A DNA stretch of 64,000 nt from a virus (lineage: Duplodnaviria; Heunggongvirae; Uroviricota; Caudoviricetes), in the IMG/VR virus record IMGVR_UViG_2721755711_000002; one strand, 5' to 3'. Position numbers and translations under genes: made by a program. The notes beneath the pieces are model-generated. The model worked only from the letters and a program-made list of their open reading frames with translations, made no database searches and was not told the origin of the DNA. Below are positions 4,724 through 27,735 of the stretch, one piece after another; the stretch's first letter is position 1; each line of letters begins with the position of its first letter.

Positions 4724-4726
4724 GGG

Positions 4727-5056
4727 TTACTTCTCCTTTTTGTCCGCTTTTTTTGTTTTCTGTGCGGCGGTCAGTTCACTGACTTTCTGGCGTTCTTCTT
4801 CCAGTTGCGCCGTCAGTTCGCTGACTTTCTGACGCTCGGCATCCAGCTGTGCGGCCAGCTCATCACCCCGGGCCGCGTCGTTCTGGCCGGACGCTTTATC
4901 GCGCTCCACCACAATCAGCATGGGGTCAGCCTTCAGCACCGCCAGCTGTTCCGGGGTGAACGCATCCGCAGGCCATTCCTTCGTGGTTGCGCTGTGTGCC
5001 ACACCGCAGCGGCGAAAACCCTCACGGCGGGCGGTAATTTCAATCACCTTTTCCAT
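4727..5056 (-). CDS. small phage head-region protein (Mu gp35-like)
   Basis: 109 aa ORF between major head and gp36-like genes; coiled-coil repeat (QKVSELTAQLEEERQKVSELTA). Confidence 0.4.
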   Translation of the reverse strand: MEKVIEITARREGFRRCGVAHSATTKEWPADAFTPEQLAVLKADPMLIVVERDKASGQNDAARGDELAAQLDAERQKVSELTAQLEEERQKVSELTAAQKTKKADKKEK

Positions 5057-5059
5057 GCA

Positions 5060-13935: not shown

Positions 13936-14141
13936 TAAGTGACCTTCTGAGCCTGTTCAATCAGGCATTTAACTTCGTCGGGATTTTCAAGAACATACAC
14001 GTTTTTCCCGGTATCCAGCTCAATGATCGTGCCACCATATGCACCACACTGACGGTAAAAATGGGTGATGCGTTCAGCGACTACCATGACAGCGCTGGTG
14101 CTCCCTGAGCCTGCGCATTCTGTAAATCTGATAATGCTCAC
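13935..14141 (-). CDS. hypothetical small phage protein
   Basis: 68 aa ORF between lysis genes and gp27-like gene. Confidence 0.35.
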   Translation of the reverse strand: MSIIRFTECAGSGSTSAVMVVAERITHFYRQCGAYGGTIIELDTGKNVYVLENPDEVKCLIEQAQKVT

Positions 14142-14161: not shown

Positions 14162-14344
14162 TCAGTTCTGCGAACACTGCCGGATGCCGTCAATAATCCG
14201 GCAGACCTTTGCCGCCGCGTCAAACAGCTGGCCCGCTCTGTTAATGTCTGTGCATCCCACCGGAAGCAACATCACCAGAAACAGGGCCAGAACACAGCGC
14301 GCGGCTTTACGTGGCGTTCTGTGGGTCCAGTGCTGACGCGTCAT
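14162..14344 (-). CDS. small lipoprotein (lysis-associated; possible outer-membrane spanin-like)
   Basis: 60 aa protein with signal peptide and lipobox (LLPVGC), three Cys in the roughly 30 aa mature part; start overlaps endolysin stop. Paralog at 27166..27348. Confidence 0.5.
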   Translation of the reverse strand: MTRQHWTHRTPRKAARCVLALFLVMLLPVGCTDINRAGQLFDAAAKVCRIIDGIRQCSQN

Positions 14345-14886
14345 ACCGCTACGCGCTCCTTCAGCCAGCCATAAACAAACGATTCGTTAGCCTCGCGTTT
14401 CTCTGCCAGTTCCAGATAGCGGTCACCCTGCGTGCAGTTCAGGGCTGTCAGCATCACCCGTTCGCCGTCCTGACCGCGATTATTCAGGAAGGCGCGCAAT
14501 GCGCTGATGGTACGAGGTCCGATGCGTCCGTCTGCGTCCATATCCGGGTACAGCCTGCCGCGCAGGTTGAAAACGTTCAGCCAGCGTTGGAGCATTTTTG
14601 ACGCCACGGATGGCCCCATATTCACACCGGTATCACACAGCTCTGCGGCAATATCAGGGGATAATGCCGCAACCTGATCAAATCGCGGGCCATACCAGTA
14701 ATCGGCTTCAAGGATGTCCAGCGCCTGTTCGCGGGTTAACTCACGCATATCGCCACGGTATCCGTGGGCACGGGCGACTTTTTCCGTAATGCCCCATTTG
14801 GTCGGGCCGCCCTTATCATCCGGGTGATTGACGTAACCGCCTTCTTTGCCCAGGACTTCATCAAAAATTTCATCTTTTGATTTCAT
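14341..14886 (-). CDS. endolysin, glycoside hydrolase family 108-like with peptidoglycan-binding domain
   Basis: 181 aa protein; N-terminal ...EGGYVNHPDDKGGPTKWGIT... is the hallmark of GH108 phage muramidases. Confidence 0.8.
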   Translation of the reverse strand: MKSKDEIFDEVLGKEGGYVNHPDDKGGPTKWGITEKVARAHGYRGDMRELTREQALDILEADYWYGPRFDQVAALSPDIAAELCDTGVNMGPSVASKMLQRWLNVFNLRGRLYPDMDADGRIGPRTISALRAFLNNRGQDGERVMLTALNCTQGDRYLELAEKREANESFVYGWLKERVAV

Positions 14887-15172
14887 GTGGATGCCTCAGT
14901 AACGAAAGGATTTTTGACAAATTCCCGTGCGCCCACACGATAAGCGCACAGAAAACCAGATTCAGCGCCACAACCAGCCAGCTGGAGTGCGTGTATGTAC
15001 CGGACAGCCAGCGGAACGGGATGATGATGTAGCCGAGCATCAGCCAGTACGCCAGCCAGGTAATCATCGGTTTATGCGCCGCACCGTGGCGGCGATACAC
15101 AAACAACCCCAGCACAATGGCGAGGCACAGCCAGACGTTCACGATACCGGCAAGGCTACTTTCCATTTCCAC
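14870..15172 (-). CDS. membrane protein (holin-like)
   Basis: 100 aa protein with multiple hydrophobic helices directly upstream of the endolysin. Confidence 0.45.
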   Translation of the reverse strand: MEMESSLAGIVNVWLCLAIVLGLFVYRRHGAAHKPMITWLAYWLMLGYIIIPFRWLSGTYTHSSWLVVALNLVFCALIVWAHGNLSKILSLLRHPHEIKR

Positions 15173-15548
15173 CCCCTCCGCCGCGCAGTCTGGAAAACAG
15201 GCCGAACAGCGATGAAATTTCCTGTTGATAAAGAAAAGTCAGTATCTTGATGGATAAAGCAGAGACACCGACCGCACACAATGCATCGAGCGGTTTGTCG
15301 TTATAGTGGGTCAGCCACTGCATCAGTGACGCAGCCACGCCAGCCCCCAGAACGCCAACCACAAACGCGACGAGCAGGTGAATAGCCATTCGCCATACCG
15401 GGATTTCTTTCTGCTGAGTGACAACAAAAAGCGCCCCGGCAAACGCGCCCACCACGACCCCGAAATCGGTATTGGTGAGAAGGCCAAACACACTGGCACC
15501 ACCGATGGTGACTGCCACAGCTCCGCCGCCTGATAAGGGTTCAGACAT
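15156..15548 (-). CDS. membrane protein (holin/antiholin-like)
   Basis: About 130 aa from ATG 15548 (SD AGGAGAAA); Gly/Ala-rich transmembrane segments. Confidence 0.45.
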   Translation of the reverse strand: MSEPLSGGGAVAVTIGGASVFGLLTNTDFGVVVGAFAGALFVVTQQKEIPVWRMAIHLLVAFVVGVLGAGVAASLMQWLTHYNDKPLDALCAVGVSALSIKILTFLYQQEISSLFGLFSRLRGGGGGNGK

Positions 15549-15730
15549 GAGTTTCTCCTGTAAATCTGAGCCACTGACGGCCCGTAAATAACACCCTGTC
15601 AAAGGCACAAAAGCCTTTTGCAGGGCGCTATCCCTTAAGGTGCCTTGTGGTCTGAGTGGACAGGGTAAACGGTCTGGTGTGGTGGGTACTGCTGGGGGAG
15701 TTCAGCACCCCGCGGCGGCGGGGTGATAAA

Positions 15731-16036
15731 TCAGAAGCGGGAAAGAGAATCCGGCGTAATAAGAGGTTTATTACAAAGCGGAGCAGAGGCGTTCGCCTTT
15801 TCCATCGCTGCGCGCATCTCGTTTTCGCTGGCGATGATGTCAGCAATGGCACACTGCAACGCTTCTTCCTGAACAACCATATCCGGTTGTTCGGCCATTC
15901 GGTTTAACTGACTGGCCAAATTTTTCATATAAGCAAAGCGACGTCCGGCAGCATCCCGGGCCTGCTCTGAGTAGGCCGTATACTCGCCAAGTGCCATATA
16001 GTTGGTCATAAGTGTCTCCTTTTTTCTGAGGCCCAT
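15731..16036 (-). CDS. hypothetical phage protein
   Basis: 101 aa ORF between Mor/C-like gene and membrane protein genes. Confidence 0.3.
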   Translation of the reverse strand: MGLRKKETLMTNYMALGEYTAYSEQARDAAGRRFAYMKNLASQLNRMAEQPDMVVQEEALQCAIADIIASENEMRAAMEKANASAPLCNKPLITPDSLSRF

Positions 16037-16503
16037 TAATCAAAAAGCCCCACCTGAGTGGGGCTTTTCAGCGAAGTCTGTTTTTGTCGTCGGTGTATCA
16101 GCTGCCATGCGTACCGGTCTGAAATGCCGTAACGGGGACAGAGCAGTGCCAGCGCCTGCCGGTGTGAGCATCCGTCTTTTACATGCTGCTGTAAATCAGC
16201 CATAAAACGGGTGTTACGCAGGGCACGTAATGCATGATCGCAACGGGGAATGTAAAACGGAGCACCGCCAAGAAAGCGGATCAGTTTGTTGATTTCGTCT
16301 TCGGTCAGCACATCATGTAACAGGGCATGGACACCGCCGGTTCGTTCGGCGTGTGCGCCGGTTTTACCGCTTAACGTCACGCCACCAAAAGAACGGATTA
16401 ACCGGGTCAGGGCGGGGAAGCCAATCACGCTAATCAGTTGCTGCACGGAATCAGGCAACAGTGCCTGCGCATCGCGAAGATCTGTTTCACTGAAGGTCTG
16501 CAT
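16036..16503 (-). CDS. Mor/C-family transcriptional activator of phage middle/late genes
   Basis: 155 aa; C-terminal ...FYIPR... RYGISDRYAWQLI... resembles the Mor/C helix-turn-helix region; located before the lysis cassette as in Mu. Confidence 0.7.
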   Translation of the reverse strand: MQTFSETDLRDAQALLPDSVQQLISVIGFPALTRLIRSFGGVTLSGKTGAHAERTGGVHALLHDVLTEDEINKLIRFLGGAPFYIPRCDHALRALRNTRFMADLQQHVKDGCSHRQALALLCPRYGISDRYAWQLIHRRQKQTSLKSPTQVGLFD

Positions 16504-16598
16504 GATGGCGTCTCCGGTAGTAACTTACTGTTATTATAGCCATACATGATCGCCTGTACAGACCACAAAAAAGCCCCTGCAAGGCAGAGGCTGATTCT

Positions 16599-17012
16599 TT
16601 ATTGTTTACGTGCTGCTCTGGCTCGTTTTCTGGCGTCTTTTGTCAGCGCCACCATCACCCCGAACAGTTGATCATCTGTCAGCCATTCGATCACATGTTG
16701 CTTATACATGTGAGATGCCAGTCCTTCCGCATACGCCCAGGAACGACCGGCATCAGCCAGCAACGCTTCAATTTTGGATAATACTGATTTTCTGCTCATT
16801 GCAACACGGGGGCGGCGACCTTTACCGGCGGGTGCCTTGCGCGGAAATCCCTGTTCGTGCATGTATTCCCGGATGATGCGCAGTTCATCAAGATTGCAAC
16901 GTGTGGTGCTGGTTTTACCTGTCAGGCGGGCCAGTGTCTGGCGATAAAGGGCATCATCCCACCCCAGATACGCCTGACCGGCTTTAATGGCCCCGATCAT
17001 CTTTTTCAGCAT
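16599..17012 (-). CDS. GemA-like protein (Mu gp16-like)
   Basis: ORF with start proposed at MLKKMIGAIKAGQ; located just upstream of Mor/C-like gene as gemA is in Mu. Confidence 0.5.
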   Translation of the reverse strand: MLKKMIGAIKAGQAYLGWDDALYRQTLARLTGKTSTTRCNLDELRIIREYMHEQGFPRKAPAGKGRRPRVAMSRKSVLSKIEALLADAGRSWAYAEGLASHMYKQHVIEWLTDDQLFGVMVALTKDARKRARAARKQ

Positions 17013-17262
17013 GTTTGTTATCCTCAAAACGCACGGTAAAACGTGAAACGCCAATCCCCGACAGGAACGCGGCGGCACGGTCAAGAGACAGCCACGTCTT
17101 GTAATCGCCACGGCGTTCCTGTAGAAAATAGGACACCCCGGCGCGGCGATTCACAGCGAAGAGGTGATACACACCACCGAACCGCTGCACGACGAACTCA
17201 TCCACGCCACCGCTTTCAGCCTGTTGCCTGAAAGCTGCCATTCCGATTTGTTCAATCTTCAT
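16984..17262 (-). CDS. hypothetical Mu-like early protein
   Basis: ORF starting at MKIEQIGMAAF, overlapping the gemA-like start. Confidence 0.3.
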   Translation of the reverse strand: MKIEQIGMAAFRQQAESGGVDEFVVQRFGGVYHLFAVNRRAGVSYFLQERRGDYKTWLSLDRAAAFLSGIGVSRFTVRFEDNKHAEKDDRGH

Positions 17263-17284
17263 AATGACCAAAACATCACTTTTG

Positions 17285-17312
17285 GCAGACCAAAACATAT
17301 GTTTTGGTCTGC
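17285..17312. promoter_or_regulatory. 28 bp perfect palindrome (candidate operator or bidirectional terminator)
   Basis: GCAGACCAAAACATATGTTTTGGTCTGC is perfectly self-complementary; the half-site GACCAAAACAT recurs directly at 17267..17278. Confidence 0.35.
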
Positions 17313-17516
17313 TGTTGGTTATTATTTAATTACTTTGCGTTAGTGTGATTCTTCCAGCGATTTTGGGCTGCGCTGGGCTTGTTAAGGGAACACATCACAA
17401 TATCAGCTGTGTTTGTGAACAAACCCATTCTGCGGTTACTGAGTTTTAGCCATTGCTGGACGCCGCGAGCGTTTCTACAGGTCAAAAGAATTTTTGCTTT
17501 ACGGTTTTTCATCTGA

Positions 17517-17825
17517 TTATTCTCCTGAAATCAGTCCTGAACGGATTACTGTTTTTGCAATATGCGCCCGTAATTGCTGCGTTCCGTGGTATTTGATTGC
17601 CACATCGCGTAATTTATTAACCAGCTCCCTGAGCTGATGCTCTTTTGCTCCCGGTGTCACCGGAATGATTCCTGCTCTCCGGTATTCCTGAAGCTCCAGC
17701 AGGGACTGCCGTAAGAGCGTCCACCACTCTCTGTCTACAATCGGCCCGCGCATATCAAGCATTTTGTCAGCATCGGCAATCAGTCTGGTCAGGCCCTTAT
17801 CGCTTATTCTGGTTTGCTGGTTCAC
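17517..17825 (-). CDS. hypothetical Mu-like early protein
   Basis: 102 aa ORF in a tight overlapping array of small genes. Confidence 0.3.
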   Translation of the reverse strand: MNQQTRISDKGLTRLIADADKMLDMRGPIVDREWWTLLRQSLLELQEYRRAGIIPVTPGAKEHQLRELVNKLRDVAIKYHGTQQLRAHIAKTVIRSGLISGE

Positions 17826-18112
17826 TGCGCCGCCTCCTGTTCATTTTTTTCACTCCGGTATACCAAAATCACGACATCACCTACGGGGATAACGCGGGTT
17901 GGTTCTCCCGGCTCTATGCTGTCGATATCGAAGGCCTCAAAGAACTCATTCATCGCCTTCTGCTGCTGCGTCTGTTTACGGTGCTTATTCCATGTTTTCA
18001 GGAATACAAGGGACAGCCACATCCCGGCGCGGAGCATGATGTAACACCAACCGAGAAGAGCGATGCCTGCATTCATGGCTACATCTATCGTTATCGTTTT
18101 ATCAATGACCAT
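17822..18112 (-). CDS. hypothetical small membrane protein
   Basis: 96 aa ORF with one long hydrophobic segment; start overlaps the neighbouring gene. Confidence 0.3.
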   Translation of the reverse strand: MVIDKTITIDVAMNAGIALLGWCYIMLRAGMWLSLVFLKTWNKHRKQTQQQKAMNEFFEAFDIDSIEPGEPTRVIPVGDVVILVYRSEKNEQEAAQ

Positions 18113-18332
18113 TGCCAGCCTCCTGTTTTGCCACTTTAAACGCCCGTAACATCGGAACCGTTTTACCGGTGATGACGGTTTTCATTAAAAGGCCACCGCC
18201 ACTCTGATGGCGCACTTCAGGTGCCACAAACAACGCCGCATCCACAACCCGGTTATAGCGGCGAAACTCCCAGAGCCAGCAGGTAACAATGATTTTTGCT
18301 TTAGTCCCATAGTTATAAAATTCAATATTCAT
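18102..18332 (-). CDS. hypothetical small protein
   Basis: 76 aa ORF in the overlapping array. Confidence 0.3.
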   Translation of the reverse strand: MNIEFYNYGTKAKIIVTCWLWEFRRYNRVVDAALFVAPEVRHQSGGGLLMKTVITGKTVPMLRAFKVAKQEAGNGH

Positions 18333-18556
18333 TTGCAGTTAAACCTTCTTTTGTGACGTTCTACAGCGGCTTTCATGGCGTTGTGCACGGTTCTTTTAAT
18401 AATCCGGCGTCCCGCACTGTCATAGAACCGCCACCGGGAAGCCCCCGGATATCCGGGGAACTCAACCACCGCGCTACCGTCATTCATCCTGTATTCGTGG
18501 CGTTCTCCGGGCGGCTGGTATATTGCTTCGGTAACACTGAGAAGTTTAAAAGCCAT
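18329..18556 (-). CDS. hypothetical small protein
   Basis: 75 aa ORF in the overlapping array. Confidence 0.3.
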   Translation of the reverse strand: MAFKLLSVTEAIYQPPGERHEYRMNDGSAVVEFPGYPGASRWRFYDSAGRRIIKRTVHNAMKAAVERHKRRFNCK

Positions 18557-18558
18557 CG

Positions 18559-19269
18559 TTACACCCTCCCCAGTGCCAGCGGTCTGTTGCTCTGACCATT
18601 AACCCCCTGATGCAGTCTGGCGTTTTTCCCGGCGATAAAACCGGCTGTAGCGGCAAACTCTGCACCCCGGCACGCTTTAGCTGTGCGCATATCCCCGTTG
18701 CGCAGCCCCTTAGTGCTGTGCAGGTTCTTTCTGTAAAGCTCAAGGCGGCTTTTTTCTTCCGGGGAGACGTCATACACCGCAATGACATCACGGGCACCAA
18801 AGACCCAGCCTTCGCAGAACTGGTCGCCACGGGCTACCCGCGTGGACGGACCACAACGTTTGCAGTGTTTATCCTGATATTTTTTACGTTCAGCCATCAT
18901 CTGACGGGAAAGCACATCAAACGCGTATGCCGCAATTTCCGGGCGGCTGTCAGGACCATAAAAACGAACGTAACGTTTGAGTGAACCAGAAGCCCGGTAT
19001 TCGCCGGATATGTAACACTCGACACCGAAGGCTTTACAGACCAGGTCACACAGGATGTGCATATAACGCGGCGGTGTACTGGCATCACTCGGCGCACCCG
19101 CGCTGGCAGCTTCCTGAATGTCGAACAATTCCGCGTCGTTTTCGCTGATGCCATGCTGGCGCATATAAGCCTGGGCTTTTGCAATAGCGTTAGCGGCTTC
19201 TTCCGGGCTTGATGTTCCTCTGGCAAGGCGTAACAGTTTTTTGATTTTGGCAATGTATTTATCTTTCAT
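18559..19269 (-). CDS. Mu-like early protein (DUF2786-like)
   Basis: 236 aa; N-terminal KIKKLLRLARGTSSPEEAANAIAKAQAYMRQHGI motif. Confidence 0.45.
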   Translation of the reverse strand: MKDKYIAKIKKLLRLARGTSSPEEAANAIAKAQAYMRQHGISENDAELFDIQEAASAGAPSDASTPPRYMHILCDLVCKAFGVECYISGEYRASGSLKRYVRFYGPDSRPEIAAYAFDVLSRQMMAERKKYQDKHCKRCGPSTRVARGDQFCEGWVFGARDVIAVYDVSPEEKSRLELYRKNLHSTKGLRNGDMRTAKACRGAEFAATAGFIAGKNARLHQGVNGQSNRPLALGRV

Positions 19270-19480
19270 GGTCGTCTGAACCTCAGCATCCTGAATTCTG
19301 AATTACGCAACTTCCGGCACGGCCTTCAGGAACGTGGGGAGTTCGTTCTGGCTGCGGTACTGAATGAACATCTGCTGTCGATTGAGAACTGGTCGCAAGA
19401 CGATTAAAACAAACGATTGTCAGATTAATTTCGCGGGCGAACTTTTTTTGCTTAGCGATATTCATAAATAAACTCTCTCT

Positions 19481-19516
19481 GATTCAGGCGTAAGCCAGCC
19501 CCGGCGGGTTTACGCC
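19481..19516 (-). repeat. conserved hairpin motif, copy 1 (hairpin then CGCCTGAAT then SD then start codon on minus strand)
   Basis: GATTCAGGCGTAAGCCAGCCCCGGCGGGTTTACGCC; near-identical to copy 3 and related to copy 2; about 20 nt upstream of the start of ORF 19283..19465. Confidence 0.6.
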
Positions 19517-19545
19517 ATATACAAATAAAATTAAAAACAGACTTA

Positions 19546-20091
19546 TTAACTACGACGTTCAGTTTTCCGGTAATGGCGGTCAACAGATTTAACGAACGCC
19601 TTCACATCACGGGAAATCGAATCCAGCGGATAATATTTATCCAGCAGTTCCATTCCGCTGAATCGAATCTGAAAAAAATCAGGCTTATCTTTATATGACT
19701 CCATCAGGTCAATAAACCGCAGCTGACGCGGGAGGGATTCCTGCACGCCTGAAATAGTGAGCAAATCATCTTCAAGGATATATGCGAGGTCTTCCATATC
19801 CTTACAGTCAGACATCATGGATATTCTTGTCAGTATGTTCCGTGTGGCGATATACAGCGCGGCTGTGTCATTCGCCATCATGGCGAACAAATCCCCCTGA
19901 ATATAAGCCCCCTTACTGGCCATAGCATTCCCGGCAATCTGCGCATCAAGTACCACATACATAAAATCGCCAGGTGCACCCAGATGGCCCAGCAATGATG
20001 ACGCCCATAACGTTACATTGGTTAACTTCCCAGATGAACGGACAGCAAAACCTTCAGGAGTAACAATAAATTCCCAGACTTTATCTTTCAT
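19546..20091 (-). CDS. hypothetical accessory protein
   Basis: 181 aa from ATG 20091 (SD AAGGGGA); preceded by hairpin motif copy 2; no recognisable catalytic motif. Confidence 0.45.
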   Translation of the reverse strand: MKDKVWEFIVTPEGFAVRSSGKLTNVTLWASSLLGHLGAPGDFMYVVLDAQIAGNAMASKGAYIQGDLFAMMANDTAALYIATRNILTRISMMSDCKDMEDLAYILEDDLLTISGVQESLPRQLRFIDLMESYKDKPDFFQIRFSGMELLDKYYPLDSISRDVKAFVKSVDRHYRKTERRS

Positions 20092-20105
20092 ATACAAATC
20101 CCCTT

Positions 20106-20135
20106 AATTCAGGCGCAGACCTGTTTACCTGCGCC
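20106..20135 (-). repeat. conserved hairpin motif, copy 2
   Basis: AATTCAGGCGCAGACCTGTTTACCTGCGCC; 7 bp stem GGCGCAG/CTGCGCC, followed on the minus strand by TGAAT, SD and ATG of gene 19546..20091. Confidence 0.55.
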
Positions 20136-20155
20136 ATAAAAAAACGAAGTCAGAG

Positions 20156-20548
20156 TTAAAAATCGAAGACGTCAGTTAATTCCCGCTTCAGTGAAACGCA
20201 CTCAGAATAAAAGCCCTCGCTCTCACCGCACCATCTGACGACTACACAGCCTTTTGATGTGCCGAACTTAAAGAAACTCCATGTCTGATGACCTTCCCCA
20301 ACATCACATTCTTCGGTAACCACTTCAGCCTCTGTCAGCGGTTCATCTTTCAGGTCGTCAAGGTCTCCGACGATGTCCTCAATCCAGACTTTTTCGCAGC
20401 CTTCCTGAAAGTGGAAAAATGTAAACACGGTTCCCCATACTCCCCGGGAATAATCACCACGAAAAACAAGTTCATCGTTTTCATTCTTAACTACTTCTTT
20501 AAATGTACGCCCGAGCATTTCATTGATAACGGTAACACTCATTTTCAT
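20156..20548 (-). CDS. hypothetical Cys-rich accessory protein
   Basis: 130 aa; preceded by hairpin motif copy 3 and GGAG SD. Confidence 0.45.
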   Translation of the reverse strand: MKMSVTVINEMLGRTFKEVVKNENDELVFRGDYSRGVWGTVFTFFHFQEGCEKVWIEDIVGDLDDLKDEPLTEAEVVTEECDVGEGHQTWSFFKFGTSKGCVVVRWCGESEGFYSECVSLKRELTDVFDF

Positions 20549-20555
20549 TTCTCCA

Positions 20556-20593
20556 GATTCAGGCGTAAGTCAGCCCCGGCTGGTTTACGCCTG
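20556..20593 (-). repeat. conserved hairpin motif, copy 3
   Basis: GATTCAGGCGTAAGTCAGCCCCGGCTGGTTTACGCCTG; 9 bp outer stem with inner GC-rich stem; followed on the plus strand by a T-run. Confidence 0.6.
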
Positions 20594-20622
20594 TTTTAAA
20601 TAACAATTAAAAACAAATTAAA

Positions 20623-20814
20623 TTAATGCGGTGCTTTCAGTGTTTCGACTTTTACGAAATAAGGCTCGACATTAATTTCAACCACACAACCACATTTAAA
20701 ATCTCTGGCAGGTGAAACGGTTTTCACCACACGACCACCACGCAACGCCGGATGTGCAGTGTGCATGAAGCGAGTCCCTACCGGATACTGCTTATTAAAG
20801 TTCTTCGCATTCAT
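20623..20814 (-). CDS. hypothetical small protein
   Basis: 63 aa ORF followed on the minus strand by hairpin motif copy 3. Confidence 0.3.
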   Translation of the reverse strand: MNAKNFNKQYPVGTRFMHTAHPALRGGRVVKTVSPARDFKCGCVVEINVEPYFVKVETLKAPH

Positions 20815-21028
20815 GGCGTGGCCTCCAGCCCTTCAGGTGAGCGTTAGCGCAGAACTCCGCACGATGTTCAGCCCAGATGCGGCGCAGGGTGCTACACGGG
20901 CTTTGTGCTGCCTTACGCCACAGCTTTTCAGCCTCGGCATAATCACCGCGCTGTTCAGCTCTTGACGCTCCCAGTGAATACGCCGCGCAACGGTTCCCGG
21001 CTCTGTACTCTTTGATATCCTGATGCAT
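20795..21028 (-). CDS. hypothetical small protein
   Basis: About 77 aa from ATG 21028, 1 nt after the stop of the upstream gene. Confidence 0.3.
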   Translation of the reverse strand: MHQDIKEYRAGNRCAAYSLGASRAEQRGDYAEAEKLWRKAAQSPCSTLRRIWAEHRAEFCANAHLKGWRPRHECEEL

Positions 21029-21029
21029 G

Positions 21030-21674
21030 TTAAACCCCTGCAATATCAAGCGGGATTGCGCGATATTCGTCAGAATCGCCGACGCGCTCATACACACGAA
21101 TATAGCTCTTGCTGCCAATCACCTGGACGGCTTCACCAATCAGCGTCATTGCGTTATTCCAGCGTTCGTCCTCAATTTCAAGGCGACGCAAGGCCAGAAC
21201 GCGCCCGGTGTTAATGTTGCCTTCCTTGTCCGTGCTGAATGCCTCGCTGATGATGGCTTTGATTTCAGGGCGTGCACCTTCCGTCCAGTCAGCCAGGCAA
21301 TCATCAATCAGCGACTTCGCGGTCTGAATGCGTTCATCAAACGCGATACGGTCCTGCATGGCGCGCTGAATCTTGTAACGCCCGTCAAAGCTGTAAAGCG
21401 TGATATTGCCTTTTTTGCCACCTTTCACTGCGCCGTATTTCTCCGCCGACAGGTCAATAAACGCCTGAATATCACCAAAGGCACGTAGTTTCAGTTCACG
21501 CAGTGAGGCGGAGGCAGCAATCACCAGTTCCACAATCTCACCGACCAGCTGCTCGCGGTCGCGGTCAATATCTTTGATAAGGCTTTCAGGTGTCATTACG
21601 CCACGGGCATCCACCCAGTAACCTTCAGGCGCTTGAGTTTTCGTGTATTGCTTAACTTTATTTTCAGTCGTCAT
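21030..21674 (-). CDS. Mu-like early protein (DUF3164-like)
   Basis: 214 aa ORF in the semi-essential early region downstream of B. Confidence 0.5.
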   Translation of the reverse strand: MTTENKVKQYTKTQAPEGYWVDARGVMTPESLIKDIDRDREQLVGEIVELVIAASASLRELKLRAFGDIQAFIDLSAEKYGAVKGGKKGNITLYSFDGRYKIQRAMQDRIAFDERIQTAKSLIDDCLADWTEGARPEIKAIISEAFSTDKEGNINTGRVLALRRLEIEDERWNNAMTLIGEAVQVIGSKSYIRVYERVGDSDEYRAIPLDIAGV

Positions 21675-21703
21675 AATTAAATTACCTCAGTGATATTTAC
21701 AGA

Positions 21704-21919
21704 TTAATTTGTGTTATGTGCGCGAGGCGCAACGTTTTCAGAAAAAATATTCACGCCGTTGTAGTCATTTCTCAGTGCTTCCTTGATAACATCATGTAAT
21801 CCTGTTGCCACCTGAAGCTCCCTTTTGGAAGCGCCATCCTTCGAATAACTCCCTGTAATCCGGGTAAAAGTCGCGCCTTTTTCATTGGTATAGATAATTA
21901 CTTCTAATTTAACCGCCAT
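21704..21919 (-). CDS. hypothetical small early protein
   Basis: 71 aa ORF with plausible spacing to neighbours. Confidence 0.3.
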   Translation of the reverse strand: MAVKLEVIIYTNEKGATFTRITGSYSKDGASKRELQVATGLHDVIKEALRNDYNGVNIFSENVAPRAHNTN

Positions 21920-21931
21920 TCTGATTTCCTC

Positions 21932-22171
21932 TCATTGCCATACGACGGTGCAGCCGTCGATACAGGATGTTTTCACCACGCGGCGCAGGCCGCTGAATGT
22001 CTGGATGATTTCCGTTACCGGCCATACAGGACCACCCACAGGCGGGCAGGCATAAACCACAGGTAAACGGTGATGTTGCCCCGTTACACGACCGCCGGTG
22101 GTGTGGATGGCCACACGGGCACGGGAACGGACGGCATTAATGGTCTGCTTTTCCATCATTTTGTTCTCCAT
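21932..22171 (-). CDS. hypothetical small early protein (Kil-position)
   Basis: 79 aa ORF immediately downstream of the B-like gene, where Mu carries kil. Confidence 0.3.
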   Translation of the reverse strand: MENKMMEKQTINAVRSRARVAIHTTGGRVTGQHHRLPVVYACPPVGGPVWPVTEIIQTFSGLRRVVKTSCIDGCTVVWQ

Positions 22172-23064
22172 CAGTGAATTAACATTTCTGAATATTTATC
22201 AATGGCCTGCACACTGACCGGTGCATCGCTGATATCACAAATCCGGTACACACCACGCGCCAGCTTGAACAGACGACGGGCATTACCCAGCGAACGTGTG
22301 TAAAGTGCCTCACCAATTTCCGGGTCCGCCGCTTCCGGCATCATGTCTGTGGCAATCTTGTTAAAATCTTCCTGCGTCAGCGTATCGCCCAGGTTAAGCG
22401 CCAGCGCCACGCGGCTGTATAATTGAGCGAACTCACCACAACGGCCCTTAAGGTTAATCAGAAGGTGAGGCATACCCGCCAGGACAATCCCGATACCCGC
22501 TTTGTCATGCAGACGGCGCAATACCTCCAGTGCACGATAGGGGAGCAGTTCAGCCTCATCCACCATCAGCAGACGACCTGACCCACGCAGTTCACGCACA
22601 CAGGCATCAATCTTCTCGCGAATATCGCCGTGAACCTTTATGCCCAACTGGCGGCACAGTTCATCGAGTAACTTTCTGGCCGTATAGCCAATATCGGCTT
22701 CAATGAGCACTACATCCCGGTTTCTGGCGGCATATTCACTCAGAATCATGCTTTTACCCAGGCCCGCCGCGCCATACAGAACGCAAATATCACACTCCAG
22801 ATGGGCGTAGGTCAGTACTTCCAGCCCTTTGGCAGCCATGCCGGTGGTGACAAATCGCACTTTAATACGGCGGTTGTTTTCCTTTTCCCATTCACGGGTC
22901 ACAAAGGCAGAAATGCGTTCTTCAATATCAGCCATATCGCCCTGATATTTGCCCTGCAAATACTGGTTGATAACAGCGCTGCTACGACCAATAGCACGGG
23001 CAACGTGGGTCTGCGTAAAGCCGCGACGGGCCATTACGTCATTTAATTGCGTAATTAAACTCAT
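22171..23064 (-). CDS. Mu B-like transposition target-capture ATPase (AAA+)
   Basis: 297 aa; N-terminal HTH-like segment followed by Walker A LYGAAGLGKS; directly downstream of the MuA-like gene. Confidence 0.8.
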   Translation of the reverse strand: MSLITQLNDVMARRGFTQTHVARAIGRSSAVINQYLQGKYQGDMADIEERISAFVTREWEKENNRRIKVRFVTTGMAAKGLEVLTYAHLECDICVLYGAAGLGKSMILSEYAARNRDVVLIEADIGYTARKLLDELCRQLGIKVHGDIREKIDACVRELRGSGRLLMVDEAELLPYRALEVLRRLHDKAGIGIVLAGMPHLLINLKGRCGEFAQLYSRVALALNLGDTLTQEDFNKIATDMMPEAADPEIGEALYTRSLGNARRLFKLARGVYRICDISDAPVSVQAIDKYSEMLIH

Positions 23065-23082
23065 AATTAAATACCTTTTAAA

Positions 23083-25125
23083 TTAACGATTATTTGTGCC
23101 GTTTTTCTTTAAATTGCGCTCACGGTCAGACACGAATAAATAAAGTTCTTCTTTTTCCTTTTTCTCCTGGCGTTCCAGTCCATATCCCAGATTAAACTCA
23201 GGTTTCTGCGTAATAGCCGGGGTAAGTTCGCGTTTAGCCTCTTCGATTTTCTGCGTGGCCCGTGCAATGCGGCCTCGGGCGCGTTTCTCCTGCTGCTGTT
23301 CGATAACGGCTTTCGGGAACGCATCGACCTTGTTACCGTTCCAGATGGCATCGCAGATATAAGAACCGTCCATTCGCCTGACAATCACGCTGTTTGCGTC
23401 GTGAATGTCGTAACAAACCCTGACTTCATTTCCGTGCTCTGCTGCCAGTTCTGTGGAGAAATAGATGTTTCTGAATAACACCACTTCACCGCGTCGCACC
23501 GTGCAGATGCTTTCCGGTCGGAACATTTCATGCAGTTCTTCCGGCGACAGCATGTCGATTTCAGCCTTTTGCTCTTTTATCAGTTTCCGGCGATACGCTG
23601 CCGGGCTGTAATGTTCGCCATCCTCTTTGCGGGGAAGGCTGCTGTGTGGTCGGTTGTTATACCGTTTCACCTCCAGCTCTATTGCGGCCAGCAGTTGCTC
23701 AAAGGTGGGGACTTCTCCCATCGCTTTAACCTGCCGTTTTGTCAGCTCTTTCCCTTTGTGGGTGGCCTTAATGGCTGACTGTGTGATGCGTTGCTGCATC
23801 ATCACCGTTTCCTTGTCTGCATTTTTTGAGCAGTACGTCTGGAAACTCAGGGCCACATCTTTGGGTATTCCTTTGTTTGCCCGTTCTATTACCCCGCGCC
23901 CCTGCGGGTTACCAGGTATCCCCGTGTGATGCTCCACACCCAGTCGGGGCAGAATCCCGGTAATATCGGCATCAAGCACCCGGTTTTTTTCACCGCCCCC
24001 GTTATCGGAGTAATAAATCAGCGGTATTCCGTGTTGTGACATGCCATGACGCAATGCATCAGCAACGGCTATCACGTTCTCCGACAGGGACAGCGACCAG
24101 CCCACAATAAAGCGTTGCCCCGCATCCATAACCAGCGTCACTTCTGGCCGGAATGTATTCCCGGTGGCGGGGCTGAATGCCATCAGTTTCATACAGTGAC
24201 CATCCCCGACCCATACCGCATTAACCGGTAATGTGCTCCAGTCGCGCCGCACAAAGGGATTGAGCGAACGCCAGGCTGAACCGGTGGAGCGGAAACGCTC
24301 CTTCACAATCACCGGGACGTTGCTTAACACCCGTCTTACTGCGTGAACTGAAGGCAGTGCTGCCAGCATTCCTGCGTCATTCGCGTGCTTTTCATGCCAC
24401 CAGGCTGAAAACTCGCGATACGCATATTCAACGGTCGGGCGCTTCCATGAGCGATAGAACATAAAGAAATCGCTCAACCACCAGACCTGCTCCCACGGTG
24501 TTCCCTTATGATGACCGGGAGCCAGTAACGCCAGTAACTGATTGGCATCACCGCGCGCCATCAACCAGGCGGAATACCATTCCTGCAAACTTCCCCAACT
24601 GACGCCAGTTCGCTTACCCTGTCTGGCGTTTGCAGTGCCTGCGGCCTCAATAATGCGGTCAGGTAACGCCCCCATGCGCACACCATCAATGATGTGTTTT
24701 ACTGCTGCCGTCCTGGACATTCCTGCGTATTCACGCAGTTTATGCACTTCGGTAGCCAGCAATATCCGCGCATCAGCGATGGCCTTTTGCTTGTCGGTCA
24801 GTGCCTGAACTTCGCGTAATGCCAGTTCCGGGCATTTGACCATCACTTCCAGTTCATCGCGAACGGTGACGTTTTTAACTGCCTTCTGCTCAACCACGGC
24901 GGGCAGTTGCGCATCTTCCAGAACCTGATGAGTCAGGCGCTTACGTAAAACTTTCTGCGCTTCAGTGGGCAGGCAGTCGATGTGATACTCGAATGCTTTG
25001 GTGCCTTCACGCTTGCGCTTCCATTCCGGGTGCGTCTCTGTGATCCGATTGAGCGTCCAGCGCACCCCCTGAACTGTACCGGGCAAACCAGGAAGACCGG
25101 CCAGCTCATTGGCTGAATAAAACAT
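23083..25125 (-). CDS. Mu-type DDE transposase (MuA-like)
   Basis: 680 aa ORF between ner-like and B-like genes; size and organisation as Mu A. Confidence 0.8.
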   Translation of the reverse strand: MFYSANELAGLPGLPGTVQGVRWTLNRITETHPEWKRKREGTKAFEYHIDCLPTEAQKVLRKRLTHQVLEDAQLPAVVEQKAVKNVTVRDELEVMVKCPELALREVQALTDKQKAIADARILLATEVHKLREYAGMSRTAAVKHIIDGVRMGALPDRIIEAAGTANARQGKRTGVSWGSLQEWYSAWLMARGDANQLLALLAPGHHKGTPWEQVWWLSDFFMFYRSWKRPTVEYAYREFSAWWHEKHANDAGMLAALPSVHAVRRVLSNVPVIVKERFRSTGSAWRSLNPFVRRDWSTLPVNAVWVGDGHCMKLMAFSPATGNTFRPEVTLVMDAGQRFIVGWSLSLSENVIAVADALRHGMSQHGIPLIYYSDNGGGEKNRVLDADITGILPRLGVEHHTGIPGNPQGRGVIERANKGIPKDVALSFQTYCSKNADKETVMMQQRITQSAIKATHKGKELTKRQVKAMGEVPTFEQLLAAIELEVKRYNNRPHSSLPRKEDGEHYSPAAYRRKLIKEQKAEIDMLSPEELHEMFRPESICTVRRGEVVLFRNIYFSTELAAEHGNEVRVCYDIHDANSVIVRRMDGSYICDAIWNGNKVDAFPKAVIEQQQEKRARGRIARATQKIEEAKRELTPAITQKPEFNLGYGLERQEKKEKEELYLFVSDRERNLKKNGTNNR

Positions 25126-25361
25126 TACGCCGCCTTACTGGCATACCGGCTTGGCCAGATCTCCGCAGGTTCCACACCAATAGCATCGGCTATGATGCGT
25201 TCATATTTAGGGCATGAGCGATACAGTGCATTTTTTAAAGAGTCTTTTTTTAGACCAGCGCGTTCAGAAAGTTCACGCAATGTAAAACCTTTGGTGTGCA
25301 CAGCGGCAACGATGTACTCGCGGTGCCAGTCTTTGTTCATTACTTCATTTCTAACCATCAT
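25125..25361 (-). CDS. ner: Ner-like DNA-binding regulator
   Basis: About 78 aa from internal ATG; C-terminal ...IADAIGVEPAEIWPSRY... closely resembles remembered Mu Ner (...ANALETKPEVIWPSRY...). Confidence 0.7.
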   Translation of the reverse strand: MMVRNEVMNKDWHREYIVAAVHTKGFTLRELSERAGLKKDSLKNALYRSCPKYERIIADAIGVEPAEIWPSRYASKAA

Positions 25362-25543
25362 TAGGTTACCCTTAAAAGTTATCCGTGCGGATAACACCGC
25401 CGTGTTATCCCTTCGGATATAAGTATTGATCCATATGTAACCCATGTAAAGCAAAAATAGCCTTTTCTTTGTATTTTCTTTTTGCTTTTGGTCTTTATAT
25501 GGTTTTGTGATTGAAAATCAATTGGTTAAATAGGAAAGGAAAA
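25362..25543. promoter_or_regulatory. divergent early/repressor promoter-operator region
   Basis: AT-rich intergenic region between divergently transcribed ner-like and repressor genes, analogous to the Mu Pe/Pc operator region; no motif-level assignment made. Confidence 0.4.
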
Positions 25544-26191
25544 ATGACAAAAAATGATGACGCTTTTTCTTTAGTTGACCGAGGAAAAGAAAGTTTTAGA
25601 GAGCGTTTAGTAAAACTAATAGGTGGGCGCAGTGTCAGAACTGCCGCGAGCGACTGGGGTATCCCTCCTTCAACCTTAAACAACTACATCCATAAAGGAA
25701 CAGAACCCTCTTTTAAAATAGCCTGCCTTATCTCAGATAAAGAGCGGGTGAGTTTAAATTGGCTCGCTTATGGTGAGGAACTCACCGCCACAGCAAACTC
25801 TTTATCAAACCAAACAGCGCAGCCTTCTCCCGATATTACAAACGAGCTAGCTAACGAGTTATTGAAAAGAGCGTCCACAGAAGATAAAGAACTATTGATA
25901 AATGCAATATGTGATATGGGTATCAAAGGAATCCTAAAACGTCTGCAACAACCCACTAGGCAAGCGAAACAAGCCGCTAACACGCTGGAGGAGCAAGAGA
26001 ATGCTATCCAAAGTCTGAATATCAGGAAATCACTTAAGGATGCAATCCGAGTAGCATTACATGGAAACGAAGATACTGACAGAGAGATTTTGCGAATTGT
26101 TGAATCTCATATACGACCACAATCGCCGGGTGATCAGACCGATGTCACACCGGAGCAAGAAACAAAATCTGTAAGTAAAAAATCAGCATGA
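25544..26191 (+). CDS. prophage repressor (HTH, XRE/CI-like)
   Basis: 215 aa from ATG 25544 (SD AGGAAAGGAAAA); N-terminal HTH-like segment (...RTAASDWGIPPSTLNNYIHKG...VSLNWLAYGE); divergent from ner-like gene. Confidence 0.55.
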   Translation: MTKNDDAFSLVDRGKESFRERLVKLIGGRSVRTAASDWGIPPSTLNNYIHKGTEPSFKIACLISDKERVSLNWLAYGEELTATANSLSNQTAQPSPDITNELANELLKRASTEDKELLINAICDMGIKGILKRLQQPTRQAKQAANTLEEQENAIQSLNIRKSLKDAIRVALHGNEDTDREILRIVESHIRPQSPGDQTDVTPEQETKSVSKKSA

Positions 26192-26479
26192 ACGCCTCGT
26201 TTTGGCGGGGCGCATGCTGCTAACTAATCAGCAACAACCACATCAAAACAAAACCAAACAGGAAAAATAAGGAAACGGGTACAGATAAAGCCCGTTTTAA
26301 AAGCATTTAAAACACGATCAATTATCTGCCATTAATGATTAAAACAGTCCAGATTTGAGCGCAAAAAAATGTACTTTTGATCATTTTCTTCAAAACGATC
26401 CAGAATCGGTAAAATCTCTCACATCCTGCGCCACTCAAGGCTTATAGGCTCGTCCAGGCTGTTCTCACTCAGTCCAGAA

Positions 26480-26755
26480 TTGATCACTACCCCACAGGTA
26501 ACAGAAGACGGTCGTCATGTTGAGGAAGTGCATGTCCTGGGGGATATGTACCGCCTGGAGTTCTATCCGCGTAACACTCATCTTGCAGCGAAGATTGAGT
26601 ATTGCCGGGACGGGAATATTCCGTGCATTCCTGTAGAAAAAGAGGATGAAGCCTACATCATCACACTGAACGGTGACACGGCGCGTTGTATCTGTCGTGG
26701 CGACAGTGAAGCCCGGAATGAAATAGCAAGATGTCGCGCCCATACAGATAAATAA
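26480..26755 (+). CDS. hypothetical ORF, possibly a 3' gene fragment truncated by the Mu-like insertion
   Basis: ORF begins only with a TTG call immediately outside the Mu-like end, without a convincing SD; followed by a strong terminator. Confidence 0.25.
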   Translation: MITTPQVTEDGRHVEEVHVLGDMYRLEFYPRNTHLAAKIEYCRDGNIPCIPVEKEDEAYIITLNGDTARCICRGDSEARNEIARCRAHTDK

Positions 26756-26764
26756 AAAGCAAAA

Positions 26765-26795
26765 ACCCCGGCTGCGGGAACAGTTCGGGGTTTTC
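26765..26795 (+). terminator. rho-independent terminator
   Basis: CCCCGGCTGCGGGAACAGTTCGGGG stem-loop followed by TTTT. Confidence 0.5.
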
Positions 26796-26826
26796 TGTTT
26801 CTGACCTTGAGTAAGCAAGGGAGAAC

Positions 26827-27009
26827 ATGGAGAAGTATAAACGAATTCTGTTTAGGTTGACTATGAAAAACGGCCTTGAATTGAAAGCGCCTGTAACTGA
26901 TGACATCAGCAGAGCGGTGGCTTTTGCCATTAAGTGGGTGGCTGTCGGTATCGCTGTGTCTCCGATTCTGTATGGGATGGCAAAATTGATCATTGCTGTG
27001 AAATCGTAA
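26827..27009 (+). CDS. small C-terminally membrane-anchored protein
   Basis: 60 aa; strong SD AAGGGAGA; C-terminal hydrophobic helix. Confidence 0.4.
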   Translation: MEKYKRILFRLTMKNGLELKAPVTDDISRAVAFAIKWVAVGIAVSPILYGMAKLIIAVKS

Positions 27010-27027
27010 GTGGGGCAGGGGTAAATA

Positions 27028-27161
27028 TGTCAGATAGCATTATAAAACTGGCGCGAATTCTCTGTGTGGTTGTTGGCCTTTCATTTTCAGCAATGTTGGT
27101 TGCCATTTTCATTTCCACCGCCTGGCGAGTATTGAGCTTATCCGGATTGATTGGTGGATAG
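27028..27161 (+). CDS. small hydrophobic membrane peptide
   Basis: 44 aa, almost entirely one transmembrane helix; SD-like GGGG upstream. Confidence 0.3.
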
Positions 27162-27165
27162 TGAG

Positions 27166-27348
27166 ATGAAGCGAAAACACTGGACACACAGAATGCCGCG
27201 AACGGCGGCGAAATGGGTACTGGTAGCGATACTGGTGCCTTTTTTCCTGGTGGGATGCGTCAGCCTGGATAAGGCGCGCCAGCTTTTCGATACGGCTTCT
27301 CAGGTCTGCGAAATTGTCGACGGTGTTCGACAGTGTCTGCAGAGCTGA
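27166..27348 (+). CDS. small lipoprotein, paralog of 14162..14344
   Basis: 60 aa; HWTHR motif, lipobox LVGC, conserved QLFD...VC.I.DG.RQC core shared with the Mu-like copy. Confidence 0.5.
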   Translation: MKRKHWTHRMPRTAAKWVLVAILVPFFLVGCVSLDKARQLFDTASQVCEIVDGVRQCLQS

Positions 27349-27510: not shown

Positions 27511-27735
27511 ATGAAGAGATTACTGGTAACCGTAAAGCCCTTTAACGGAACGATTCCATTCAGGGTTTTGCAGCGTGGACGTGTTCTGGTTAAGGATATC
27601 TTCAGTGGTAAATGCACGGAATGTTATTCCCGGACATATGAAGTGGATGCCACGGATGAAGAAATTTCTGTTGAATGTGATCTGAACGCGAATATGGCGG
27701 GGATTGTAACAGCCACGTTGTTGCCGGTTTCATGA
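27511..27735 (+). CDS. hypothetical small protein
   Basis: 74 aa from ATG 27511 with SD GGAGGGG. Confidence 0.35.
   Translation: MKRLLVTVKPFNGTIPFRVLQRGRVLVKDIFSGKCTECYSRTYEVDATDEEISVECDLNANMAGIVTATLLPVS

Follow-up and report, generated by a model that had tools for sequence, protein, structure and literature searches.

The stretch of DNA analysed here (hereafter the window) comprises 64,000 nucleotides from the IMG/VR virus record IMGVR_UViG_2721755711_000002 (Caudoviricetes). It carries two small genes, termed copy A and copy B, each of which encodes a predicted prolipoprotein of 60 residues; copy A lies in a Mu-like prophage and copy B in a lambdoid late region. Both had been singled out, as similar lipoprotein genes, in a preliminary description made from the letters alone. 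The two open reading frames (ORFs) exist as described there, are homologous to each other, and have the following parts:

14162..14344, minus strand: copy A (type A), prolipoprotein gene, 60 aa (ORF and PHROG 7528 match, E 7e-43)
14297-14344, minus strand: copy A, N-region, codons 1-16
14255-14296, minus strand: copy A, hydrophobic core, codons 17-30
14252-14254, minus strand: copy A, lipobox Cys31
14165-14254, minus strand: copy A, mature peptide, 30 residues
27166..27348, plus strand: copy B (type B), prolipoprotein gene, 60 aa (ORF and PHROG 7528 match, E 6e-37)
27166-27213, plus strand: copy B, N-region
27214-27255, plus strand: copy B, hydrophobic core
27256-27258, plus strand: copy B, lipobox Cys31
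27256-27345, plus strand: copy B, mature peptide, 30 residues

Split at the lipobox, the product of copy A reads MTRQHWTHRTPRKAARCVLALFLVMLLPVGC followed by TDINRAGQLFDAAAKVCRIIDGIRQCSQN, and that of copy B MKRKHWTHRMPRTAAKWVLVAILVPFFLVGC followed by VSLDKARQLFDTASQVCEIVDGVRQCLQS. The two are identical at 33 of 60 positions (55%) in a gapless BLASTP alignment (E = 5e-26), which is far beyond chance, and both are matched end to end by PHROG 7528 ("unknown function"), residues 1-60 of copy A corresponding to profile positions 1-60. The exact sequences of copy A and copy B also occur together on one E. coli contig. The motifs listed in the preliminary description (HWTHR, a G-C lipobox and QLFD..VC.I.DG.RQC) are correct; of its three conserved Cys, the lipobox Cys and the two mature Cys are indeed invariant, but copy A has a fourth (C17) inside the signal peptide.

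In public records the family proteins are labelled 'hypothetical protein' or, automatically, 'Lipoprotein'. Pfam gave nothing for either copy at E ≤ 1 (the Lysis_col, entericidin, Rz1, Bor and Cor families included), no NCBIfam model came near its cut-off for copy A or copy B, and the PADLOC-DB defence hidden Markov models (HMMs) gave nothing at E ≤ 1 for copies A and B or for the most divergent members, P0016, which clusters with Enterobacter spp. proteins, and P0030, known from assemblies of metagenomes and sequencing runs. When 1.84 billion representative proteins were searched exhaustively by HMM, just 20 matches were returned, which indicates a narrow family (Enterobacteriaceae), with named members in E. 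coli, Salmonella, Enterobacter, Cronobacter and Mangrovibacter. A word-indexed protein search retrieved close relatives only, and a profile search of the PDB sequences yielded helical-bias noise only.

The proteins consist of a 16-residue N-region with 5-6 positive charges, a hydrophobic core of ~15 residues, a lipobox and a mature peptide of ~30 residues, the lipoprotein signal having been judged by its pattern (a G-C at the end of the ~15-residue hydrophobic core). Gly-1, the lipobox Cys+1 and two mature Cys, at precursor positions 48 and 57 near the C-terminus, are invariant in a 12-sequence alignment (32-92% identity). The same ATG start, encoding M-x-R-x-H-W-T-H-R-x-P-R, is found in 90 of the 90 genes collected; a dual-start motif in type B was considered and ruled out, since Met10 is not conserved. 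Each protein has a single hydrophobic segment (residues 14-32), its ~15-residue core fitting a signal peptide rather than a membrane anchor, and a polar C-terminus (…RQCSQN or …RQCLQS). Position +2 holds T, V, S, A or G in every member and never Asp, as the sequence rule for sorting to the outer membrane demands. The lipobox is the canonical LVGC in type B and an atypical PVGC in type A, with a Pro at position -3 in all type-A members (LLPVGC, or LPLGC in two; 14255-14263, minus strand, in the window), so that the two types of precursor may differ in processing efficiency. The mature peptide contains no proline at all, in keeping with the earlier remark that it is not proline-rich like Rz1; it is moderately amphipathic at mature residues 7-24 (hydrophobic moment 0.49-0.63) and its helix has a heptad-like hydrophobic pattern.

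When type A was compared with type B, the ratio of nonsynonymous to synonymous substitution rates (dN/dS) was 0.14 for the N-region (with dS saturated), 0.17 for the mature part and ~1.0 for the hydrophobic core. Such low values outside the core mark a real, protein-coding gene under purifying selection. The N-region of the signal peptide (14297-14344, minus strand; 27166-27213, plus strand) is constrained as strongly as the mature peptide, which is unusual for a part that should be cleaved off, and this hints at a role of the basic N-region at the inner membrane or before cleavage.

In the Mu-like prophage the cassette order is Phage_holin_8, Phage_holin_3_7, GH108 endolysin and copy A, whose ATG overlaps the endolysin TGA (ATGA) and is preceded, 11 nt upstream, by an AAGGAG Shine-Dalgarno sequence. 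To define the context elsewhere, IMG/VR was scanned with the family alignment, which gave 80 lipoprotein-anchored loci. An endolysin gene lies upstream in 77 of the 80 (the other three are contigs with <710 nt of upstream sequence), so the association of these small lipoprotein genes with lysis genes, previously noted for the window, holds well beyond it; in about 160 related loci overall the gene comes after an endolysin of GH108 or M15 type. In 51 of the 77 the endolysin-lipoprotein gap is -4 to +14 nt, on the same strand, and in the rest 1-3 small ORFs are inserted. Type A loci have GH108 (n=9) or M15 (n=8) endolysins and type B loci M15 (n=44) or GH108 (n=16); both lipoprotein types thus occur with both endolysin types, and therefore the lipoprotein is not bound to a single enzyme. 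The gene order persists in the most divergent members (40-62% identity), one of which has a minimal cassette behind Q (Phage_holin_3_1, M15, lipoprotein), and the Phage_holin_8 and Phage_holin_3_7 pair is present in nearly all E. coli-type loci. Neither copy A nor copy B was found to have a sigma-70-like promoter ahead of it on the coding strand.

Mu-like myoviruses and several lambdoid backbones, which differ in their tails, were found to carry the lysis cassette. The two genes had been assigned to two different prophage modules; two phage backbones are indeed involved, but they are better described as bearing one mobile lysis cassette (Phage_holin_8, Phage_holin_3_7, endolysin, lipoprotein). 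Among 5,426 complete E. coli genomes, 356 carry the lipoprotein gene, at up to 8 copies each; it is further present in only five isolated-phage records representing four distinct phages (phiP27, phiSTEC1575-Stx2k, GER2 and vB_Apl-pPE4). The record of the last of these (PP818812, 'Actinobacillus phage vB_Apl-pPE4'; locus L089) contains an E. coli-type cassette at 92-93% identity with an unannotated lipoprotein gene at 20079-20258, and the recorded host, Actinobacillus pleuropneumoniae, looks doubtful on this evidence.

The slot occupied by the lipoprotein gene can also be occupied by Rz/Rz1, a proven spanin. When the window was compared with phage PhiR12_3, homology extended through both small membrane-protein ORFs that precede copy B, up to the start ATG, and then the sequences diverged: past that ATG, PhiR12_3 has Rz with an embedded Rz1, and the window has the lipoprotein gene. 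A second sample of 80 further loci was collected from IMG/VR via the Phage_holin_3_7 protein, an anchor chosen to avoid circularity. In these, the endolysin was followed by the lipoprotein gene in 68, by Rz/Rz1 in four (L129-L132) and by both in none; the remainder comprised contig ends, a deletion (L124), a transposase pair (L134) and an enterotoxin-like pair of A and B subunit genes (L111-L113). The last pair, at about 4400-5670 in these lambdoid loci, encodes secreted proteins of ~260 aa and ~125 aa, the N-terminus of the larger of which presumably resembles the heat-labile enterotoxin A subunit. Between L129 and L085 identity is 87.6% on the left, as far as base nine of the gene, and 78% on the right, from a conserved 74-aa gene on; only the segment enclosed by these flanks has been exchanged. 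No λ-type Rz or Rz1 was found within ±4 kb in 88 lipoprotein loci. Such a swap would be expected of functionally equivalent modules in mosaic phage genomes.

The Rz/Rz1 pair comprises a component of the inner membrane (i-spanin) plus one of the outer membrane (o-spanin), and a counterpart of the former was sought. The preliminary description had seen no obvious inner-membrane partner gene, and a systematic search of the window, of 87 loci and of the whole phiP27 genome agreed with it. The phage parts of the window contain no other lipobox ORF and no ORF with a type-II N-terminal transmembrane domain (TMD); no recurrent type-II TMD partner occurs within -3 to +2.5 kb in the 87 loci, where the hits of the TMD scan were toxin signal peptides, cargo genes and out-of-frame ORFs; and no type-II partner is present in the complete phiP27 genome. 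Individual candidates were rejected as follows. The 68-aa ORF that follows copy A lacks a TMD and is confined to Mu-like contexts. Most loci lack the 60-aa and 44-aa membrane-protein ORFs that precede copy B, and these ORFs also stand upstream of Rz in PhiR12_3-type phages; the 60-aa protein has an N-tail with 6 positive charges, which should face the cytoplasm. The DUF4752 protein (17822..18112) belongs to the early region, the out-of-frame ORFs inside the holin genes look like non-coding frames, and neither phiP27 L22 (a TMD with GIY-YIG cargo) nor phiP27 L05 (an SPFH-like inner-membrane lipoprotein) is shared with the Mu-like phage or conserved along with the family.

One family member has been catalogued as a spanin before. 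In the census of Kongari et al. (2018) phiP27 is listed with a 'separated' two-component spanin, the i-spanin at 20348..20542 and the o-spanin at 20706..20861 of NC_003356 (PMC6139136); this o-spanin is an ortholog of copy B (93% identical), so that the family is already represented among catalogued spanins, although by bioinformatics only. According to the same census, the phiP27 o-spanin has a 30-residue mature domain that is 83% helical, and the pair has, with 62 residues, the shortest combined periplasmic length of all (PMC6139136). Both halves of the entry need revision. The catalogued o-spanin uses an internal start (51 aa), but the 90 of 90 homologs begin 9-11 codons upstream, with the HWTHR N-region; the 51-aa version is too short because all 90 genes share the upstream ATG. 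The catalogued i-spanin is a TTG-start, 64-aa ORF that is absent from all other loci, matches no PHROG or Pfam family and runs antisense to a 90-aa ORF matching phrog_36812 (E 5e-20). It was rejected as a false call, being confined to phiP27, without a family and antisense to a PHROG-matching gene, and by these sequence comparisons the phiP27 entry should fall in the census class 'lipoprotein without linked i-spanin'. Hence the databases can be corrected at two points, the phiP27 i-spanin call and the phiP27 o-spanin start codon. What GenBank lists in phiP27 as L32 (20630..20785) reads the 5' half of the lipoprotein gene in a wrong frame, and the true lipoprotein ORF, 20673/20679..20861, is unannotated in NC_003356 (this phiP27 stretch is L001 3654-4183).

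On the whole it is probable, though far from certain, that both genes encode the terminal, outer-membrane-directed component of a mobile lysis cassette, an equivalent of Rz/Rz1 that most likely needs no dedicated phage i-spanin. This reading is built on the homology of the genes, the purifying selection, the signal and lipobox features, the cassette position, the alternation with Rz/Rz1 and the lack of a conserved partner gene; lipidation, outer-membrane localisation, the disulfide state and lytic activity are what it would predict. A spanin-like outer-membrane role had been suggested from the position beside lysis genes, and the exchange in situ with Rz/Rz1, between the same flanks and never together with it, makes this the best reading. 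The genes would be transcribed late, together with those of the holin and endolysin; the 60-aa precursor would be exported, and the Lgt/LspA/Lnt pathway would lipidate Cys31 and cleave the signal peptide. Because residue +2 is never Asp, the mature peptide of ~30 residues would then be sorted by Lol to the outer membrane's inner leaflet. There the peptide would form an amphipathic, proline-free helix, and Dsb would probably oxidise its two C-terminal Cys into a loop or into homodimers. Once the holin has fired and the endolysin has removed the murein, the peptide would destabilise the outer membrane and complete lysis, a job otherwise done by Rz/Rz1 in the sister phages.

Several observations weigh against this reading. 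A 30-residue helix measures ~45 Å and cannot bridge the periplasm, and therefore canonical spanin bridging cannot apply as such. The lipobox of copy A (LPVGC), with its Pro at -3, fails the classical pattern, and a dN/dS of 0.14 in the basic N-region is unexpected for a disposable signal peptide. The net charge of the mature peptide is -4 to +3, i.e., it is not cationic, unlike the disruptin gp28, and the AlphaFold2 model (from a 6-sequence alignment) is one long low-confidence helix (pLDDT 65) and thus uninformative. The lipoprotein gene may in addition be dispensable, since both it and Rz/Rz1 are missing from some relatives that have the same holin and endolysin genes: L124 has a deletion that leaves the first lipoprotein codons, L134 has an apparent IS21-like transposase pair, and L111-L113 have the enterotoxin-like cargo in the slot directly after the GH108 endolysin. 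Spanins themselves are dispensable in low-divalent-cation media.

A more specific version, possible but tentative, is that a lipid-anchored, disulfide-stapled, amphipathic helix of ~30 residues suffices alone for the outer-membrane step of lysis, once the murein is gone and without bridging the periplasm, and that the N-region of its signal has a function of its own. Such a lone helix would represent a further class of outer-membrane disruptor beside the two-component spanins, the unimolecular spanins and the disruptin. It might locally perturb the inner leaflet, activate a phospholipase as colicin lysis proteins do, or mediate a short-range fusion between processed forms in the outer membrane and unprocessed forms in the inner membrane.

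The family can be placed with respect to the known systems. Like λ Rz/Rz1, it is the last gene of the lysis cassette, encodes a predicted outer-membrane lipoprotein with periplasmic Cys, and in sister phages sits in the same slot between the same flanks; it differs in being a single 183-nt gene without an i-spanin, whereas the λ genes form an embedded pair. Rz1 is also Pro-rich (10 Pro) and unstructured, whereas the mature part of the family is helical and proline-free, and the two have no sequence similarity. Of the features by which a two-component o-spanin is recognised, the family shows the lipobox signal, the lack of Asp at +2, the location in a lysis cassette and the two periplasmic Cys that could form homotypic disulfides, but lacks a cognate embedded, overlapping or adjacent type-II i-spanin gene. 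Among o-spanins a pair of C-terminal Cys is the most frequent pattern, and T4 PseT.2 cannot do without either of its two (PMC6139136). PseT.2 has an LLVGC-type lipobox (in the T4-type PseT.2 of phage AR1), a C-terminal helix and, at the C-terminus itself, a pair of conserved Cys spaced 9-11 residues apart, as in the family; however, its mature form has 83 aa and it works with the i-spanin PseT.3, and an hhalign comparison of the family with T4-type PseT.2 found similarity in the signal peptide only (probability 35%). The unimolecular spanin gp11 of T1, which can replace Rz/Rz1, is likewise the product of a single gene with an N-terminal lipoprotein signal, but gp11 has a C-terminal inner-membrane TMD, and the family has a polar C-terminus and one hydrophobic segment.

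Colicin lysis proteins, or bacteriocin release proteins, are prolipoproteins of ~45-50 aa that give mature lipopeptides of ~28-35 residues and make the envelope permeable, their gene standing last in an inducible operon; the signal peptide of one of them is reportedly functional. The family differs from them (Pfam Lysis_col) in its mature sequence, with two Cys and a helix, and in having no Pfam match at E ≤ 1. Finally, gp28 of phiKT, the 'disruptin', is also a small, amphipathic-helix, single-gene candidate for spanin-independent disruption of the outer membrane (bioRxiv 10.1101/515445), but it resembles a cationic antimicrobial peptide and is no lipoprotein, whereas the family has a lipobox, a near-neutral charge and two conserved Cys.

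An unlikely alternative is a conventional o-spanin with an unrecognised inner-membrane partner, which could be a holin-family protein, a host protein, the i-spanin of another prophage or the unprocessed precursor itself. The lipobox, the two C-terminal Cys and the cassette position are all o-spanin-like, and Kongari et al. filed the phiP27 ortholog as half of a two-component spanin (PMC6139136), but the i-spanin published with it is spurious, and neither the 87 loci, by way of a recurrent type-II TMD protein, nor the whole phiP27 genome offers another. The constancy of the Phage_holin_8 and Phage_holin_3_7 pair in nearly all E. coli-type loci would fit a holin-family protein as the partner; however, the same pair occurs with Rz/Rz1 in L129-L132 and is thus not specialised for the lipoprotein, and the most divergent member stands behind a different, single holin (Phage_holin_3_1). 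The conserved cytoplasmic N-region would be sensible if the precursor acted in the inner membrane, and the heptad-like pattern of the mature helix and the up to 8 copies of the gene in E. coli genomes also speak for this alternative; yet thirty residues, even doubled, fall far below the ~200 Å of the periplasm.

We attach a low probability to the proposal that the proteins are regulators or accessory factors of lysis at the inner membrane, acting through the basic N-region and the membrane segment before or without cleavage. There are precedents for lysis-essential proteins of this kind, namely the 'releasin' Mu gp25, a small single-TMD protein essential at the holin/endolysin-release step (PMC9239132), and the 65-aa Lcc6 of LambdaSo, a small single-TMD protein essential for lysis (bioRxiv 10.1101/2024.01.23.576932). 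Selection constrains the N-region (R-x-H-W-T-H-R-x-P-R) to the same degree as the mature part (dN/dS 0.14) and the type A lipobox, with its Pro at -3, is poor, but the G-C of the lipobox is invariant in all members and the hydrophobic stretch is only ~15 residues long. Moreover, the gene swaps with Rz/Rz1 and not with holin-level factors, and the lipoprotein is indifferent to the type of endolysin; in transmembrane scans neither endolysin showed a hydrophobic N-terminal segment, so that they are probably not signal-anchor-release endolysins that need a releasin.

Small prophage lipoproteins with roles in exclusion, receptor masking or host fitness exist, and bor adjoins Rz/Rz1 in λ. That the genes are surface lipoproteins of the moron type (for superinfection exclusion, receptor masking or host fitness, like Cor, T5 Llp and Bor) merely parked beside lysis genes would suit this general background, the other cargo (Stx and LT-II-like toxin genes) in or beside the cassette and the mostly prophage-borne occurrence (only 5 isolated-phage records, from 4 distinct phages), but is improbable for a gene that is translationally coupled to, or at most 14 nt from, an endolysin gene on the same strand in 51 of 77 loci, has no promoter-like site of its own in the window, moves with the cassette across backbones with different tails and so is unlinked to receptor specificity, is mutually exclusive with Rz/Rz1, and matches nothing in PADLOC, Pfam or NCBIfam. 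For the same reasons, i.e., its travelling with the lysis cassette and not with tail or receptor genes, the lack of an own promoter and the lack of PADLOC or Pfam matches, the exclusion role that the preliminary description had offered beside the spanin-like one is disfavoured.

If both genes do supply the outer-membrane component of the cassette, they bear on an acknowledged question, namely how spanin-less phages breach the outer membrane: ~13% of the phages surveyed are without recognisable spanins, and 31 genomes have a lone lipoprotein (PMC6139136). The family is well suited to this question, given its home in E. coli, its frequency (356/5,426 complete genomes) and its presence in inducible phages that include the Stx2e phage phiP27 and the Stx2k phage; a natural swap with Rz/Rz1 between matching flanks already exists. 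A protein that works alone would be the smallest outer-membrane lysis effector known so far and could serve as a compact part where lysis or protein release is engineered, and the proposed role, if true, bears on Shiga-toxin release from phiP27-type phages. The gene family and the tentative o-spanin label (phiP27) are already known; the solo status, the true start, the conserved N-region and the in-situ exchange with Rz/Rz1 do not appear to be described in the papers searched.

The surroundings of copy A are as follows. Window positions 1-26496 are part of the Mu-like prophage, which lies on the minus strand and has genes for a sheath protein, Mu gp36- and gp37-like proteins, a DUF935 portal, TerL, a DUF1804 protein, Mor, the transposases A and B and a CI-type repressor; a close relative of it is the E2348/69 prophage inserted in eutC. 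The genes next to copy A are:

15156..15608, minus strand: Phage_holin_8 holin-family gene, likely start ATG at 15548 (Pfam PF16931, phrog_198 holin)
14870..15172, minus strand: Phage_holin_3_7 holin-family gene, three TMDs (Pfam PF05449, phrog_217 holin, transmembrane scan)
14341..14886, minus strand: endolysin gene (Glyco_hydro_108 and PG_binding_3), directly upstream of copy A (Pfam PF05838 and PF09374; phrog_315 endolysin)
13935..14141, minus strand: small soluble ORF downstream of copy A, no TMD (phrog_7691, function unknown; in Mu-like contexts only)

The RefSeq homolog of the Phage_holin_8 protein is annotated with 130 aa. A tblastn search of the phage collection with this protein (15156-15548) gave no match, despite the ~60%-identical L28 of phiP27, probably because the low-complexity filter acted on a membrane protein so rich in Gly and Ala. 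An IS3-family element at 3188-4245 (minus strand), with orfA (HTH_Tnp_1) at 3919-4245 and orfB (HTH_21, rve) at 3188-3922, sits between the Mu gp36-like (4271-4723) and gp37-like (2328-3065) genes, and because of this position the Mu-like prophage may be defective in morphogenesis.

The region of copy B begins at the left (c-repressor) end of the Mu-like prophage:

26470..26496, strand not assigned: left (c-repressor) end of the Mu-like prophage (alignment with the E2348/69 Mu-like prophage end)
26497..26755, plus strand: 5'-truncated lambdoid ORF (93-aa ORF, phrog_33497), the first ~8 codons of which lie beyond the Mu-like prophage, outside the window
26827..27009, plus strand: small membrane-protein ORF, 60 aa, with a C-terminal hydrophobic segment (phrog_1115)
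27027..27161, plus strand: small membrane-protein ORF, 44 aa, ending 4 nt before the start of copy B (phrog_4906)
27511..27735, plus strand: conserved 74-aa late gene, right flank of the swapped segment (homolog at L129 4663-4887)

In E. coli RM11911, where the lambdoid prophage is intact, the genes run Q, holin, holin, GH108 endolysin, the 93-aa ORF, the 60-aa membrane ORF, the 44-aa membrane ORF, the lipoprotein gene and terminase. The last Mu-like base in the window is 26496 (…CCCCACA, followed by GGTAA), the reverse complement of TGTGGGGTAGTGATCAATTCTGG. Since the Mu-like left end TGTGGGGTAGTGATCAATTCTGG lies to the left of ~26497, and homology to the RM11911 prophage begins only to the right of it, the junction 26496/26497 is, on this alignment, the point at which the Mu-like phage transposed into codon ~8 of the 93-aa phrog_33497 ORF. 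Copy B is by the same comparison cut off from its own holins and endolysin, which must lie past the left edge of the window. The label 'lambdoid remnant' given earlier to this region was consequently wrong: instead of a remnant left by deletion, it is a lambdoid late region that the Mu-like insertion has separated from its holin and endolysin genes.

The lambdoid late genes, from terminase onward, are thereby severed from Q, the holins and the endolysin, and the Mu-like prophage brings in the same kind of lysis cassette as that of the lambdoid phage it interrupted. The expected 5-bp target duplication (GGTAA) and the other Mu end lie outside the window. Just past the truncated 93-aa ORF, at 26757-26800 (plus strand), a hairpin with a T-run (AAAACCCCGGCTGCGGGAACAGTTCGGGGTTTTCTGTTT) looks like an intrinsic terminator inside the late operon; the terminator scan reported the minus-strand version only. 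In some lambdoids the 60-aa phrog_1115 ORF is inserted, as an accessory, between the endolysin and lipoprotein genes; it also stands upstream of Rz in PhiR12-type phages. Together with the phrog_4906 ORF, likewise of unknown function, it recurs in lambdoids whether the outer-membrane component is the lipoprotein or Rz/Rz1 (PhiR12_3), and the two may be further unrecognised lysis accessory genes.

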